The notes beneath the pieces were generated by a model that was not told where the DNA came from, did no database searches, and saw nothing but the letters and a program-made list of their open reading frames with translations. A program made the translations under genes and the position numbers. From Rhizodiscina lignyota (Eukaryota), in assembly GCA_010015805.1 (NCBI GenBank), contig ML978124.1:1922001-1986000 (forward strand): 64,000 nucleotides of DNA, in the 5' to 3' direction. This document shows, piece by piece, positions 27,748 to 35,200 of the stretch (position 1 is its first letter; each line of letters starts with the position of its first letter).

Positions 27748-27907
27748 TCTTTAAGATGTTTCTAGCTTGCGCTGTCTCTCTACAAGGGGGCTTTAGACCA
27801 ACTGGACCGGTAACTCCATGCGATGCAACAGTCTGAAATATATAGGTAGATGAATCGCCCAAGATAAACTCCCAAAAGTAGATCGAAATGAACCAGCTCT
27901 TTCCCAC

Positions 27908-29961
27908 CTAAAAAGCGCTCGTATCCATGTGCCCATTTGCGCCGTTGCCATTCGGTCCATTCAATGACTCCGCTTGTTGCTTCGTGATTTCATCCAGGCA
28001 GTTCGCGCTTGCCGCGAGGAAGCCCAAGTAGGGTCTGCTGGGATCTAGTACGCGGCTCAGGTACTCTGGATGGAACTGTACGCCCACAAACCAAGGGTGG
28101 TCCTTCAGCTCGATGATCTCCATCCTCACACCTTGATCATCTTTGCCAATGAAAGTGAGGCCAGCAGATTCGAGTTGTTCGACATACTCGGGGTTCACTT
28201 CGTACCGGTGGCGATGTCTCTCCAAGATTTCGCCGTTTTTGTCTTTGTAGAGCTTTCGAAGCTTGCTCCACTCGCTGTCTGGCTGGAAGAGAGTTGGTCG
28301 GAGTCCAAGTCGCATGGTTCCGCCCATCACTTCTTTGTTAATCTCCGGCATGTAAACAATGACATTGCTGGCACCAGTGGTCCCCGCGAATTCTTCGGAT
28401 GTGGCATTCGTTATTCCGCAAACGCTACGCGCATAGTCAATTACGGCGACCTGCATTCCCAAGCATATGCCCAAGTAAGGCCGGCCATTCTCGCGTGCCC
28501 ACTTCGCAGCGACCACCATGCCCTCTATGCCTCGGTTGCCGAAACCCCCTGGAACAAGTACGCCATCCGCAGTGCACATATCGTGCCATGCCTTGTGATA
28601 CTTGGCGGTGTCTTTACTGGAACTCTTGGATTCAAGATGTTCCGAGTCGACCCAGACGATCTTAAGTTTCCGTTTGCACTTCATGGCGCAGTGTTCGAGA
28701 GATTTGATGACACTAAGGTACGAATCGTGAAGGTCGATGTATTTCCCGACAAGTGCGATAGTGACCGTCTCAAGGTATCCATGATGCCCAGCCAAGGTGA
28801 GCGTCTTCCATTGGTTCCAGATGTCATGACCCTTCTTAACAAGCAGCTGTGAAAAAGTGCAGTTGTCGAGTCGGAGACTACTTCGCAGTAAAGGAATGAA
28901 GCCTTGTTCTTCGAGGAGGATCGGAACCTGATAGATGGAAGGCATGTCACGGACAGCGACGACCTGCTCGTCTTCAACCTGACAAAAGCGCGCAATCTTC
29001 TCGACAGTCCCTTTATCAAGGGGACGCTCGCAACGGCATGCAATCTACTTTTCGTCAACCATACGCGTATACAACGCACTATAAGTGTCATACCAAGTCC
29101 GGAATGAGACCTGCACTGCGGACAGCCTTGATAGTTTGCTGTGTGGGCTTCGTCTTCTGCTCCCCGTTGATGACAGGGATGTATGAGACATGGATGTTCA
29201 TGAAGTTGTTCCTCCCAGCTCTTCTTCGCAGCTGGGTCATGGCCTCCACGAACGGCATGCTCTCAATATCACCTATCGTTCCACCGAGCTCTATAATGCA
29301 CACGTCTGGCTCCTCATTGGTATCATCCACTGGAATTTTTGCGACCCTTTCGATCCACTCTTGAATCGCATCCGTGATGTGCGGGACGACTTGTACAGTC
29401 TTTCCCAGGTATGAACCCTTTCGCTCCTCATCGATGACATGTTTGTATATCTTTCCGGTCGTGATATTATTCTCTCGAGTGAGTGTGATGTTTAGGTATC
29501 GCTCGTAATTTCCAAGGTCGAGGTCAACCTCACCGCCGTCGTCCAGGACAAAGACCTCCCCATGCCTGCAAAGTTGTTAGTAATATGTTTGTCAAGAGTC
29601 GCTGAGAACACATACTCCATGGGGCTCATGGTGCCTGCATCGACATTGAGATACGGGTCGATTTTGATCGACGAGACGTATAGCTATTGTTAGCTAGTTG
29701 TATCCACATCTGAGCGCCACAAAGACGCGTCAATTTGGGACACATATCTTCAATCCAATTGTCTTGAGCAGTAGTCCGGTGGAAGAGGCTACGACGCGTC
29801 AGTAGGCATTCGTTTGTCGCGTTCGACGCGACGGTGGTAAATTTTCTCCATACCAATAATGCCTTTTCCAACCCCGCTAATCACACCTGCAGAGCATCAA
29901 CATGAGTTTGAATGTGATTATCTGATTCACACTGACCGCCAGATACCAGTACATATTTCAT
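27908..29961 (-). CDS. URA7: CTP synthase, 5 introns (one AT-AC)
   Basis: [62 protein letters not shown]; glutaminase triad intact. Confidence 0.97.
29678..29747 (-). other. Non-canonical AT-AC intron (U2-type signals) in CTP synthase
   Basis: Minus strand: ...GGA TTG AAG | ATATGT...GCTAAC AATAGCTATAC | GTC TCG TCG ATC AAA ATC GAC CCG; removal gives [16 protein letters not shown]. Confidence 0.82.
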
Positions 29962-30776
29962 TTTGGCGATTGCGCGTGTATGTGTTGCCTTCCCTCGACA
30001 GGAGAGGGGGAAGAGAGAAATAGAGAGTGCGCAAATCCGCTGCGTGCATATGTAAACTCGACCAAGCGGTGGGGCACCCTTGTCGAGTCAGACACTGCCA
30101 ATCGGGGTACCTTGCTGATGTTGAACGAGACCGAGACAACGAGAGACGTAGCTGCGGAACGACTTGATATTTATATATAACCGCTTTCGTGTTTATGCTG
30201 GTGTTAAAGTAAGTATCATTTAAGTGTTATATATTGCCTGAAGCTGCCAAGCAGTGAATGGCTTTATTCATAACTTTCAAGGCCCTGGAGTGCTACAATA
30301 GTGTGTAGCCTCCGCAATCAATACAATTCACCAAAAAGTTGGCACCATGTTATTATTATATACACCCCAAAGTACATACAATAGCGCTTCAGAGACAGCC
30401 TCTTTGTCTTGATGTGCAAGAGCTGCTTGCCCCAAACGCGTTACAGCTTGCACAGTGGGCAACCACTTTGTCACAATCGAGGCCACCAGAAACGATTAGA
30501 ACATTCATTTGCAAAACTCTATTGCTGCTAAGAGCGGCATATCAGATATTAATGCAGTCCTACAATGTCGCCTCGTGCGTGGTCGTGTTCTCCACATAGT
30601 CGTAACCAGCATCATAGCTTCCAATCCTGCCTCTTCGAAGACCAGCTCCCGGAGCGACAGAATGGGGTCTGCATAATGGATAAATATGCAAATGCGTAAT
30701 TTCCATCAACATAGAGGGTATCTTCGACAATACCAAACCCGACCATGCCCTATCACAACCAATGATGTATTTCCTG

Positions 30777-32281
30777 TTATGAACCCGAATCCTTACGCCG
30801 TCTTTGCCTTGGCCGCTCCTCTTCTCTCGCTTCAGCCCCTTGCTCTTCGCCTGCCTCACTGATGCTTTGCCTCTTTCTCGCAAGCGCTTTCTCGTTTCCC
30901 TTCTTGACCTGAATGTTGCAACCTTGCAGTTTGAGCGCTCTTGTCAATGCACTGCTCGGCCGCATACCAGGGAAATCTTTGGCGGTATACACGGTGAAGA
31001 CGTCGCTAACCACATCCGTGAGGATGGGAGAGAAGCCACCGACGTGCATATTCGCCGGATCCAGGCGCATCAACACGAATCGAAGCCGATATCTGCCATG
31101 CGTCCTGCACGACAGGTCTGGGAAGCAGAAGAAGCAGCCTTCCACGTCGTGCTCATCTTTTGCCACTGAAGGTGAGGCTACCAGTTGGCCCATTAAGCGT
31201 CGTGTTCGCCGGCGATCTGGCTGTTCTAGCGCCGTCTCCTCGGTGAGACCATCTGCGCTCCACAGTGTGCAGTGAACGACGTTGAGTGAGTAGCGAAGCT
31301 CATCAATGTCTGACGTGCCTGTCGTTGGATCTCGTACAAGAAGCTGTATGATAGGAGGGGGATCTATTACACGCCGATCTCGCTCACCAAAGCCGCACGC
31401 TCGCGCGGCTATGGGTTGCTGCCGTACCCTCAACTCATACTGCAATGGTCTGCGCATTTGGTTAGACTCTCAAAGCGTTTCAATTGAGGTCATATCACTC
31501 ACGATCTCTCTAATACCGGCACAGGATGAGGGACTGGGCCTGATAATGTTGGTGGAGGGACCTGAACAGGAGCCGGCGCCTGGAGAGGAGCTGGAGCATT
31601 CTCACCATGCGAAGTTGGGCCATATACCGAACTAATAGATCCACGGTGAGCAGTGGGATGACTTCGATACGACGTGCCGCTCGGAGCGTATGTGGGGGTG
31701 TAGCTTGGTGATGGAATTGGTCCCTGCTGCTGTTGTCGGTACGCAGAATCTCCCGGCGAAAGATAAGATGGCTCCAGCACACGACCTGGATGCCGCGGTT
31801 CCTCAATTACATAGCGATCTGATCCAGGCGGTCTTGCGGCTGGAGGGGGTCCAAGGAACGATCTCGGTGGCGTGCGCCTTTGCTCATGAATGGGGGAGAA
31901 TTCTGGTTCCGACTTTGGCGGCGTACTTGGTTGCGGAGAGAGTAAATTTGCCAATGGCGCTGCGGATTCCGATGGCGGACGAGTCTGTGAATGCCTAGCA
32001 GCTGCCGGAGGTGGAGGCACTGGCCCTGTGGTCTGCGCCGGAGCCGAATGGATTGCTGCCAACTGAGGCAAAGTCGGATGGTTCCCTTGCTGATATTCAG
32101 CTCGACCAGGTGGTGGGGGAATTGTTAATGGCGGAAGTTGAAAGGCATGAGGAATGCGACGAGGTGAGAAGTCCGGAAATGGCGGTGGGAGAATTGGAGC
32201 GCTCTGAATCTCGGCCATAGTTGCAGAAGATGCTGGAGGACCTTGAGAATACGAAGGCGAGGGGAACGAATGGCTTGACAT
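30777..32281 (-). CDS. velC: Velvet-domain transcription factor, VelC type, 1 intron
   Basis: Pro-rich N-terminus then C-terminal velvet domain YELRVRQQPIAARACGFGERDRRVIDPPPI...FPDLSCRT.G.YRLRF...FTVYTAKDFPGM. Confidence 0.88.
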
Positions 32282-35200
32282 GCGTAAAACATTACCGACC
32301 CAGTTGCCTACGCCGGACCAAACACCATTTGGGAAACAATGTTCTATCGGGACGAACGGGAGTTCACCAAGTCGCAGAGAATTGGCCGTGGGCTGCAACT
32401 TGGTGAGGCCGTTAGTAATGGAGGCCTGCGGCGGATAGTATGGTGTGGCAAGATCACGCTGCTTATACGCAGAAGAGGTATGAGCAGAAGCCCTGGTATG
32501 GACTACTTTGTATATGGATCGACAGGCGTTGGATCGTCATGCCGTGAGCAATGCTCCAGCACCCGCTACCCACCTGCACCGCCGCCGGCACTTGGACAGT
32601 TCCCAGGATTTAGGATAGCACTCCCTGAACATGTGTGACAGGCAACCGAGGCTTGGTTGACTCAAATTCGCCGAACGGGGAGCTGGACAGGGCGTTTGCG
32701 ACTAGACAGGGCAATATCGAAGCGTTGATCCCAGGGCCTAGTGGCAAGGCTGGTCCGGCGCGAAAGAGAGCGCTTTGGCGCTCTGGAGTGAGGACAATTG
32801 CTCTCAAGGACGCATCAGAGTGTCGATGCTGCAGATGTGAGAATCAAGGGCAGCAGGGAAGGGCCTCGCGCTGGGTATTTAATTCTTTGGGGAAAATAAA
32901 ATGGAACACGCCCAACGAGCTGGACCAACGAACGTGCGCACCAAGACATCCAGTGCGTCGCTACGAGAATCGGGAAGAGAAATGTCTCGAGTGTGGCTCT
33001 GTGTAGCACGCTGCTTGCGAGAATGCGGTTAGGTTGACTTGCTGGACTAGACGTATTCTCGTCTCACAAACGTTCTTTGTCCCCCTTCGTTCGCCTGCGC
33101 ACAAGGACAGCATTAGCCACAACCAATCTGATAGGAAGCTTTTGCCGTGAGCGACCGAGCTGTGGCAGCAGTCCGCTGGCCGGACCCACGCTGATCCAGA
33201 GGTTGGGTCTGGCGGGCCACTGTCCGTTCGGCAGCTCAGGCTCTGGCACTGGCACTGCTGTTGCGCGCCAGTCCGACGAGCTCGCAGAAGGGAGCGGCCT
33301 AGTAAGGAGGAGGGAAAAGCGGAGCTCACTGAGCTGTCATGGCACCCGACAGCAGGCAAACCGGCGCGCTCGACGCGCTCAAGACGGTAAGAAGCCGTGC
33401 CTAAATGGTTAATAGCAGGCCGGAGAGCCTCTGGACGGCGCGCTGGCCGAGTAAGCCCCATCGCAACATGGCAAAGTTGCATGATATCCGCACGCCTGGG
33501 AGATGGTCAAGCCTCTTTTGGCCTTTGCAGGGTCATGGTGTGACATCTGCAACTGTTGTGCGGTGCGCAGCCAGGCATCTTCGATCTTCGACCGCGGCCG
33601 CCCCTGTCGCGACGTTCGACGTTCGAACCTGGAAGTGATCGCAATCGTGGGCGCCGCCAGCAAATCACCGCAATCAGCAGCCTTTAGACATTGTTTCGTG
33701 TAAACAGTGCCGCCCGCCGCGCTTCTAGAAGGCCGCCTCCGGATTGCCATGCATGCAGCGAAGCGCCCGAGACGTGTCGGCATCGAGCAGCATTGCACCT
33801 CGCGCCGCTACTGCTCACGATCCGCTGTCGTGCAAGAGGTGTTCGCTGGACCGCAATCACAGAAGGGACAAAACCTTGGAAGCCACGTGCAAGGGCAGAC
33901 GACATCATCTTAGCGCAAACGGTCGTCGGCCGTTTTGGTCGAGCTGAGTGGGTTGTTCTGCGCCTCTGCTTCCCTTAGCGGCGGCGTGCGCGCTGGGGAG
34001 GCCTTGTTCGGACCTCATCTCTCCCCCACTCAGTTCCACCTCCCACCTCCCTCTGAAACCCCAGCTCGAGCGCACCGGCGCTGCCAATCCTGCGTCGAGG
34101 ATGACAAAAGAATGGAGTCCCCTGAGGCTCGAACGCGTGCCGCAGAAATGAGTTTTGCTCTTCGGCGCTGGCGAGAGCGTGTCTGGATGCTTGATTTGAT
34201 ATGCTTCAGACGGTACTCATGACAAGGTCACCGCTGCAATGCGCACATCGGCATTGACTGGAGAGTATAGACATCCCGGAGGTGTGTAGGCACGGCTCGA
34301 CTTTTCGGTCATCTTCGATCCTGCTCCTACTCGCCTTCACATTGGCTGCCGGATCAGCCCGTTTCACGTCCGAAAGAAGCAGTGTGGCCAACCTTCTCGT
34401 CCCCAGACTCGGGAACGCTTCCGGACAAGTATACTTATCGGGAAGAGCATGAAGAGCGCTTGATCGTTGACGCCTTGGCACACCTCGCTGACGATTTCGC
34501 CTTTCGCAGGGGTTGTAGGCTAGCCCAGCACTCTTCGTACCGTCTGACCAAAAGCTCTCATCAACCGCTCGGCGCTACGAATATTGCCCTGCCAATTCTC
34601 CGGACGCCCGATTAACGGTGCACAGGTGGAGAGGGCTGGGGTCGTCCCGATCAGGACGCCCTCCTTTTCATGATACCTCTCTGGGAAGGCTTCTCGCTAA
34701 GCAAAGGCCGTTTTGAGGCTCTTGCATCGTGGGATGCTGAACGGACAACCCTACAAGGTTCCACTCTGCGAATCTGAGATGCCCCAGGCAGATTTTAATG
34801 ACAAACATCTTGGAAACATGGCTGGAAGTCGCTAAGCCCGACGACGATCATTACCACAACCCGGACTTCAAGGTATCCCACTTCTCGCGGTCTGACCAAG
34901 TGAGAAGCCTCCCCTCGCCCGGAACTGACAAAACAGTTGCGCCACAGCTACGACACGACAAATTGTTCAGCTGCGCGGCCTCTTTAATCAAGATGGGTCA
35001 TCCTTTTATGTATGCTGTGCAATCTCGATAAACGCTGGCTAATTAATATTAGGCTATGCTTTCGTGGACGCTCTTACTTGCATTGGAGAGTGAAACTGGT
35101 TTGTACTACCTCTATTCGAGCCTCATCGGTGTCAGCTATTCTGTCACGTTCGAGATTGTCTCATAAATGAGTGGCAAGGACAGGACAATGAGAGTTCCCA

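Follow-up and report, generated by a model that had tools for sequence, protein, structure and literature searches.

The third intron of the CTP synthase gene of the dothideomycete Rhizodiscina lignyota begins with AT and ends with AC. Very probably it is a real intron that the spliceosome removes constitutively and a member of the U2-dependent 'type II' AT-AC class. It is also old, and its unusual ends have most likely been kept by a barrier to reversion. The gene lies on the minus strand of a 64-kb window, here meaning the whole stretch of 64,000 nucleotides (nt) that was analysed (contig ML978124.1 of GenBank assembly GCA_010015805.1, positions 1,922,001 to 1,986,000), and its features are listed in Table 1. 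An earlier note, made from the letters alone, had described a 70-nt intron with the ends ATATGT and TAC, a GCTAAC branch motif and a TGA in the sixth codon. All of these details hold on the minus strand, where the first base of the intron is A at 29747 and the last is C at 29678.

Removal of the segment from AT to AC joins AAG (Lys) to GTC (Val) to give ...TIGLK + VSSIKIDPY..., and only this excision restores the conserved junction. The product matches the uninterrupted ...GLK|VSSIK... of homologues that have no intron here. If retained, the intron reads ATA TGT GTC CCA AAT TGA, with the stop as the sixth codon. The GCTAAC motif leaves 11 nt to the end of the intron. The bounds are unambiguous, as the flanking bases differ from the terminal bases and a shift of one base would alter the conserved Lys. 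Nested or recursive GT-AG splicing (a 'stwintron') was also considered and was rejected because the first base to be removed is A, where no GT-AG step starts.

The terminal bases, which the earlier note had singled out for checking, are the same in an independent assembly of run X1 (Logan), where a single contig of 129,549 nt with a depth of 152 agrees letter for letter with the window over 27850-30050, without a differing base or indel. Run X1 possibly represents the same reads as the window, and the comparison rules out an assembler slip, not an error common to the reads. A shared read error at the termini is nevertheless moot because the same termini recur in the comparative data described below. 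X1 is DNA, and no splice joints are present in its contigs.

Orthologous loci were found by scanning metagenome contigs with exon 5, and the 80 loci recovered are 76-90% identical to it. For each, the sequence between the ...G-L-K codons and the V-S/T-S-I-K codons was read, with 8 loci missed by the pattern read by eye. An AT...AC intron is present at the identical codon boundary in 65 of the 80, well beyond what chance would give. No intron is found at the site in 12 loci, and a GT...AG intron is found in one (L040). Of the last two, one is cut one base into the intron and has the 3′ end GCAC (L060), and the other stops short of the site (L061).

The AT-AC introns comprise 49 distinct sequences, including that of the window, and range in length from 49 to 84 nt. 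Their 5′ ends are ATATGT (23), ATAAGT (20), ATAGGT (4), ATACGT (1) and ATTAGT (1), and their 3′ ends are CAC (37), TAC (9) and AAC (3), with G never found at -3. Without exception the 49 carry A1, T2, G5, T6, A(-2) and C(-1), and 48 have A3. Between introns of equal length, the interiors share a median identity of 0.29, a near-random level. Mixed ends, either AT-AG or GT-AC, occur in none of the 80 loci, and the single locus with GT, L040, ends in AG. Hence A at the first position and C at the last always occur together, which would be explained if, as proposed, a contact between A and C substitutes for that between G and G.

The flanking introns in the same loci are of the ordinary type. Intron 2 could be resolved in 44 loci, of which 37 have it as GT-AG and 7 lack it, and intron 4 is GT-AG in 70 of 80, absent in 9 and odd in one. 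In this locus (L031:1620-1700), the otherwise canonical intron 4 seems to start with TTAAGT and not GT, and the exon-4 peptide reads VSSQK where others have VSSIK. This is either a contig error or a further non-canonical site.

The distribution of the intron was examined in a FastTree tree of 128 rows. These were the window, 54 named proteins picked at about one per genus, and those loci in which 250 or more of the 505 columns were filled. Among the loci excluded for lack of sequence were L027, L028 and L072. AT-AC loci are found in both main halves of the tree. One half is the Dothideomycetes, and in the other the AT-AC loci belong with Leotiomycetes (L048 and L049, beside Cadophora), Eurotiomycetes (L068 and L069, with Thermoascus) and a set of Lecanoromycetes-like loci. 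Intron-less loci adjoin Morchella and also occur at four other positions, and L040 is sister to an intron-less group within the Dothideomycetes. The state is known for 72 rows (60 AT-AC, 11 without intron and 1 GT-AG), and these require at least six changes. The simplest reading would have the AT-AC form arise once, before the classes of the leotiomyceta split, and then be lost cleanly several times and converted once. These classes diverged hundreds of millions of years ago. On the sequence evidence, the AT-AC intron is deeply conserved in at least six classes of the Pezizomycotina.

Three proteins in the tree were placed unexpectedly. P0066, P0072 and P0112, which carry names of Xylariales or Xylariomycetidae and are Sordariomycetes by name, group with Botryosphaeriales inside the Dothideomycetes with 99% local support, and could represent a paralogue, a transfer or an artefact of the tree.

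The remaining signals of intron 3 show signs of compensating for its odd ends. T at +6 is present in all 49 AT-AC introns compared with 10 of 30 intron 2 and 30 of 54 intron 4 sequences, and G at +5 is present in 49/49, 30/30 and 50/54, respectively. The Lys codon upstream is AAG in every one of the 49, where distinct intron-less copies have AAG in 5 cases and AAA in 4. A branch motif of the form CTRAY/TTRAC lies within the last 25 nt in 49/49, and in the first 45 distinct introns the motif is CTGAC (37), CTAAC (4), CTGAT (3) or TTGAC (1). AG dinucleotides are common in the last 12 nt before the 3′ end (23/49, as against 3/30 for intron 2 and 13/54 for intron 4), as expected if a spliceosome with A at +1 cannot use AG. 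An alternative AT-AG product, which would end at the upstream TAG (last base 29684) and insert Leu-Tyr, had been put forward in the earlier note. It finds no comparative support, as the upstream AG is not conserved.

Apart from an A in place of G1, the ends ATATGT, ATAAGT and their variants are those of the fungal U2-type consensus, and with AT and AC termini and a U2-type branch site the introns have the make-up of type II. On the mechanism proposed here, the 5′ splice site would be recognised by U1 and then U6 via positions +3 to +6 and the exon-final G, and U2 would base-pair at the CTRAC branch site, some 12 nt before the intron ends. An A-C contact would then, at the second step, take the place of the non-Watson-Crick contact between the first and last G of the intron. 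Rescue of G1A by G(last)C, with lower efficiency, is described for yeast and human introns in the part of PMC1557818 drawn on here. A single reversion, giving GT-AC or AT-AG, would be predicted to cripple the splicing of an essential gene and so to make the AT-AC state a trap. The only escapes seen from this state are loss of the intron and one double change. AT-AC most likely persists through this barrier to reversion, not through any function of the odd ends themselves.

Two explanations that go beyond a reversion barrier are doubtful. In one, the ends would be the fossil of a U12-type intron that was taken over when the minor spliceosome was lost in Dikarya, and in the other, they would form a kinetic checkpoint that couples CTP synthase to second-step capacity. 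If either were true, this would be the oldest natural case known of an essential gene whose splicing forces an A-C terminal pair on the major spliceosome.

The earlier note had further suggested that the intron acts as a throttle, with slow second-step splicing or retention of the TGA-containing intron tuning the level of CTP synthase and the AT-AC ends being selected for that purpose. Retention of the AT-AC state over 49 distinct sequences would fit this, as would the lower splicing efficiency of engineered AT-AC introns relative to GT-AG introns in the relevant part of PMC1557818. But T6, G5, the exon-final G and the branch motif are each found in 49/49, an unusually strong set of signals that looks like selection for efficiency. 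Moreover, loss of the intron from 12 loci and its conversion to GT-AG in one, spread over several lineages and with at least six changes on the tree, indicate that the odd ends are dispensable, and a fitness valley two mutations wide accounts for their persistence without a function. Open reading frames (ORFs) that start within or at the end of intron 3 (P0065 and P0011) were rejected as evidence of retention, because P0115, a transcript-like contig, starts inside the canonical intron 4 in the same way and makes such contigs uninformative for intron 3. The throttle has gained no support, and we consider it improbable.

A different possibility is that the bounds are wrong. The mRNA would then be formed by canonical GT-AG splicing, the copy would be decaying, or the terminal bases would be in error. 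The public R. lignyota protein P0002 (571 aa) provides an argument for this, as it is reproduced exactly when the window is spliced at the GT-AG pair 29872-29684. When GT/GC-AG pairs were sought up to 30 nt from each boundary of the intron in the window, GTCCCA...CAATAG alone kept the frame without a stop. It inserts ICLY, in line with the four added residues counted in the earlier note. Pairs of this kind also occur by chance within 30 nt of the boundary in 37 of 45 distinct loci. However, each of them inserts or deletes residues of the conserved peptide and none is common to different lineages. In the public model itself, 20 conserved residues are lost, the GKG motif among them, and the final six bases of the true intron, left behind by the false one, are translated as Leu-Tyr. 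A segment that begins with A is beyond the reach of GT-AG excisions, however many are combined. In addition, the other four introns of the gene are canonical and 49-65 nt long, the ORF is intact, the second assembly has no base difference and the termini are identical in 65 other loci. Taken together, these observations make wrong bounds very improbable, and the AT-AC bounds given in Table 1 are preferred.

It is now clear that the public R. lignyota model is mis-annotated, as the earlier note had predicted of gene finders in general, and its false intron ends at the very TAG that had been flagged there. Related errors were found when the best 120 public homologues were compared. The correct junction is present in 50 of them, and 21 carry scars of reading into the intron, with Ile or Met after GLK in 10, His, Tyr or Asn before VSSIK in 14, and both in 3. 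The N-terminus is truncated or otherwise divergent in the remaining 49. Scars were seen in Dothideomycetes, Eurotiomycetes (Ophidiomyces), Lecanoromycetes (Lasallia), Geoglossomycetes (Glutinoglossum) and Lichinomycetes (Phylliscum). An essential and highly conserved enzyme is therefore wrongly modelled in many public fungal proteomes, and pipelines for orthology, phylogenomics and completeness scoring inherit the error. Permitting AT-AC at this site would repair the models. The NCBI Cenococcum geophilum models P0136 and P0137 start at a Met inside exon 4, and the first 49 residues of P0140, described next, are missing from them.

Indirect evidence at the RNA level comes from a relative. P0140 is an uninterrupted ORF of 608 aa found on six Logan contigs, in a 90% cluster around P0011, and its last 559 residues are exactly those of the C. 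geophilum protein P0137. Over the junction it reads ...TIGLKVSSIKVDPY..., an exact K|V. At the site, two Cenococcum-like genomic loci with five introns each, L004 and L006, carry ATAAGT...GCAC, and when this intron is spliced as AT-AC each gives a product that matches P0140 at 211 of 212 residues. Similarly, the public Thermoascus aurantiacus model P0095 has the AT-AC-spliced junction of L068, and the two are identical over the 505 columns of the tree. For five further transcript-like proteins (P0009, P0028, P0078, P0118 and P0120), no matching locus was found at ≥95% or ≥90% identity, and only the Cenococcum cluster has a near match. In a further Cenococcum transcript-like contig, P0144, the CTP synthase is fused to about 180 additional residues that are unrelated and charged. 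This extension could result from read-through, an alternative 3′ end or a chimeric assembly.

AT-AC termini and a short distance from branch site to 3′ end are also typical of introns of the U12 type, and in 44 of 45 distinct introns the putative branch A is 9-13 nt from the last base. The U12-type 5′ site, /ATATCCTT (or /GTATCCTT), is absent, with ATATCC starting none of the 49 AT-AC introns, and the U12-type branch site TCCTTAAC, expected 10-15 nt from the 3′ end, is likewise absent, with TCCTTRAY in 0 of 45. Removal by a cryptic minor spliceosome is scarcely credible, as the 5′ sites (ATAAGT/ATATGT) and branch sites (CTGAC/CTAAC) are those of ordinary fungal introns, most of the flanking GT-AG introns have equally short branch distances (10-18 nt in intron 2 and 9-14 nt for most of intron 4), and the host clade is reported to be without the machinery, no convincing minor introns or small nuclear RNAs (snRNAs) being recorded for Ascomycota and Dikarya in the sections of PMC10639083 and PMC2846911 cited here. 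The earlier note is supported in its view of a natural AT-AC intron that bears U2-type signals within a housekeeping gene. An Rfam search gave no matches in the window, a result that says little about minor snRNA genes in the genome as a whole.

Several points weigh against the conclusion that intron 3 is an obligatory type II intron. Removal at exactly these bounds in R. lignyota itself is deduced from genomic letters. That the P0140 contigs derive from spliced RNA is suggested by an ORF unbroken across five intron positions, and L004 and L006 are relatives about 98% identical to the source of P0140, not the same strain. The 49 distinct sequences share descent, and the counts made from them are descriptive and do not represent independent events. 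Finally, that U11, U12, U4atac and U6atac are absent is taken from the literature and not from a search of this genome.

Type II AT-AC introns are known from animals. In the text consulted, Sheth et al. (2006, PMC1557818) count 24 U2-dependent AT-AC introns in five genomes, examples being those in SCN4A, SCN5A and TAF2. They resemble the CTP synthase intron in their AT-AC ends, U2-type 5′ site and conservation among orthologues, and the 5′ consensus for the animal introns, given as /ATAAGT in an excerpt of PMC5029451, is the 5′ end of 20 of the 49 CTP synthase introns. The fungal intron differs in that it belongs to a lineage reported to lack the minor spliceosome, where removal would fall to the major one, and in that it is short (49-84 nt), has CTRAC near the 3′ end and is common to several fungal classes.

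In 1993, Parker and Siliciano reportedly described engineered introns with G1A and G(last)C combined (cited in PMC5029451; see also references 52-54 of PMC1557818). Engineered yeast and human introns of this kind follow the rule seen here and tolerate an initial A only when the final base is C. The engineered introns splice poorly, whereas the CTP synthase intron is natural and long-lived, and sits in an essential gene with strong compensating signals. A nested AT-AC intron in Saccharomyces cerevisiae RPL30 likewise comes from an ascomycete without a minor spliceosome, but according to the portion of PMC5029451 that deals with it, it is a side product (1-2%) with a 5′ site unlike the consensus, whereas the CTP synthase intron appears obligatory and matches the consensus.

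Events of the same class have been recorded in the same subphylum. AT-AC junctions make up 69 of 14,305 in Trichoderma RNA-seq data (PMC4324775), and have also been counted in Fusarium graminearum (PMC3577648) and in fungal annotations (PMC7072748), while AT-AC II introns were hypothesised for xylanase genes of filamentous fungi (PMC1557818). In the parts of these sources cited here, the reports amount to counts or hints for a gene family. No paper tying AT-AC to CTP synthase, or describing an AT-AC intron found across the Pezizomycotina, was met in the literature searched, from which the supplementary lists of PMC7072748 and PMC3577648, which could name the gene, were left out. The intron offers a natural and long-running test of the matching of first and last intron bases (A-C or G-G) in a clade whose sole reported spliceosome is the major one, in which the strengthened signals and the tolerance of a nearby AG would be visible side effects of the AT-AC state. 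It is also a ready system for studies of second-step proofreading in filamentous fungi.

Table 1. Features of the R. lignyota CTP synthase gene and its third intron, in coordinates of the window.
Feature	Position	Strand	Description
CTP synthase gene (URA7-like)	27908..29961	-	ATG to stop, six exons, five introns, 589-aa product
Intron 1	29887..29936	-	GT-AG, 50 nt
Intron 2	29789..29853	-	GT-AG, 65 nt, GTATGG...CTGAC...TAG, ordinary
Exon 3	29748..29788	-	coding, final codon AAG
Intron 3	29678..29747	-	AT-AC, 70 nt, phase 0
5′ splice site ATATGT	29742..29747	-	U2-type GTATGT with G1 replaced by A
Branch-site motif GCTAAC	29689..29694	-	predicted branch A at 29690, 12 nt from last intron base
3′ splice site TAC	29678..29680	-	YAG with last G replaced by C
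Exon 4	29616..29677	-	coding
Intron 4	29566..29615	-	GT-AG, 50 nt, GTATGT...TACTAAC...CAG, ordinary
Intron 5	29045..29093	-	GT-AG, 49 nt
GT-AG 'intron' of public model	29684..29872	-	false, 189 nt, mis-annotation

The start codon of the gene is the ATG at 29961 and the stop codon occupies 27908-27910. Pfam matches to CTP_synth_N (3.8e-70), in exon 5, and to GATase (3e-40) were found, and exon 6 carries the last part of CTP_synth_N together with the class-I glutamine amidotransferase domain, the combination that defines a CTP synthase (PyrG/URA7). Exon 5 is 100% identical to the R. lignyota CTP synthase.

A short element, TGACGCGTC, is present at 29724-29733 on the minus strand in intron 3 and again at 29793-29801 on the same strand near the 3′ end of intron 2. 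It contains the palindrome ACGCGT, which occurs in 7 of the 49 AT-AC introns, in 3 of 30 intron 2 sequences and in none of the 54 intron 4 sequences. In 8 distinct AT-AC introns, namely those of the window, the L016-L025 group, L042 and L027/28, a YTRACGC motif begins between intron positions 15 and 17. We take ACGCGT in these introns to resemble the MluI cell-cycle box of G1/S genes. The element could be intronic and promoter-proximal in function, or a decoy branch site.

The neighbouring gene at higher coordinates, on the same strand, encodes a Velvet-factor domain (30777-31469, minus strand; Pfam E 1.1e-62). Directly 5′ of this ORF is a proline-rich ORF of 345 aa (31499-32536, minus strand) with no Pfam match, which probably belongs to the same gene as the Velvet-factor domain.

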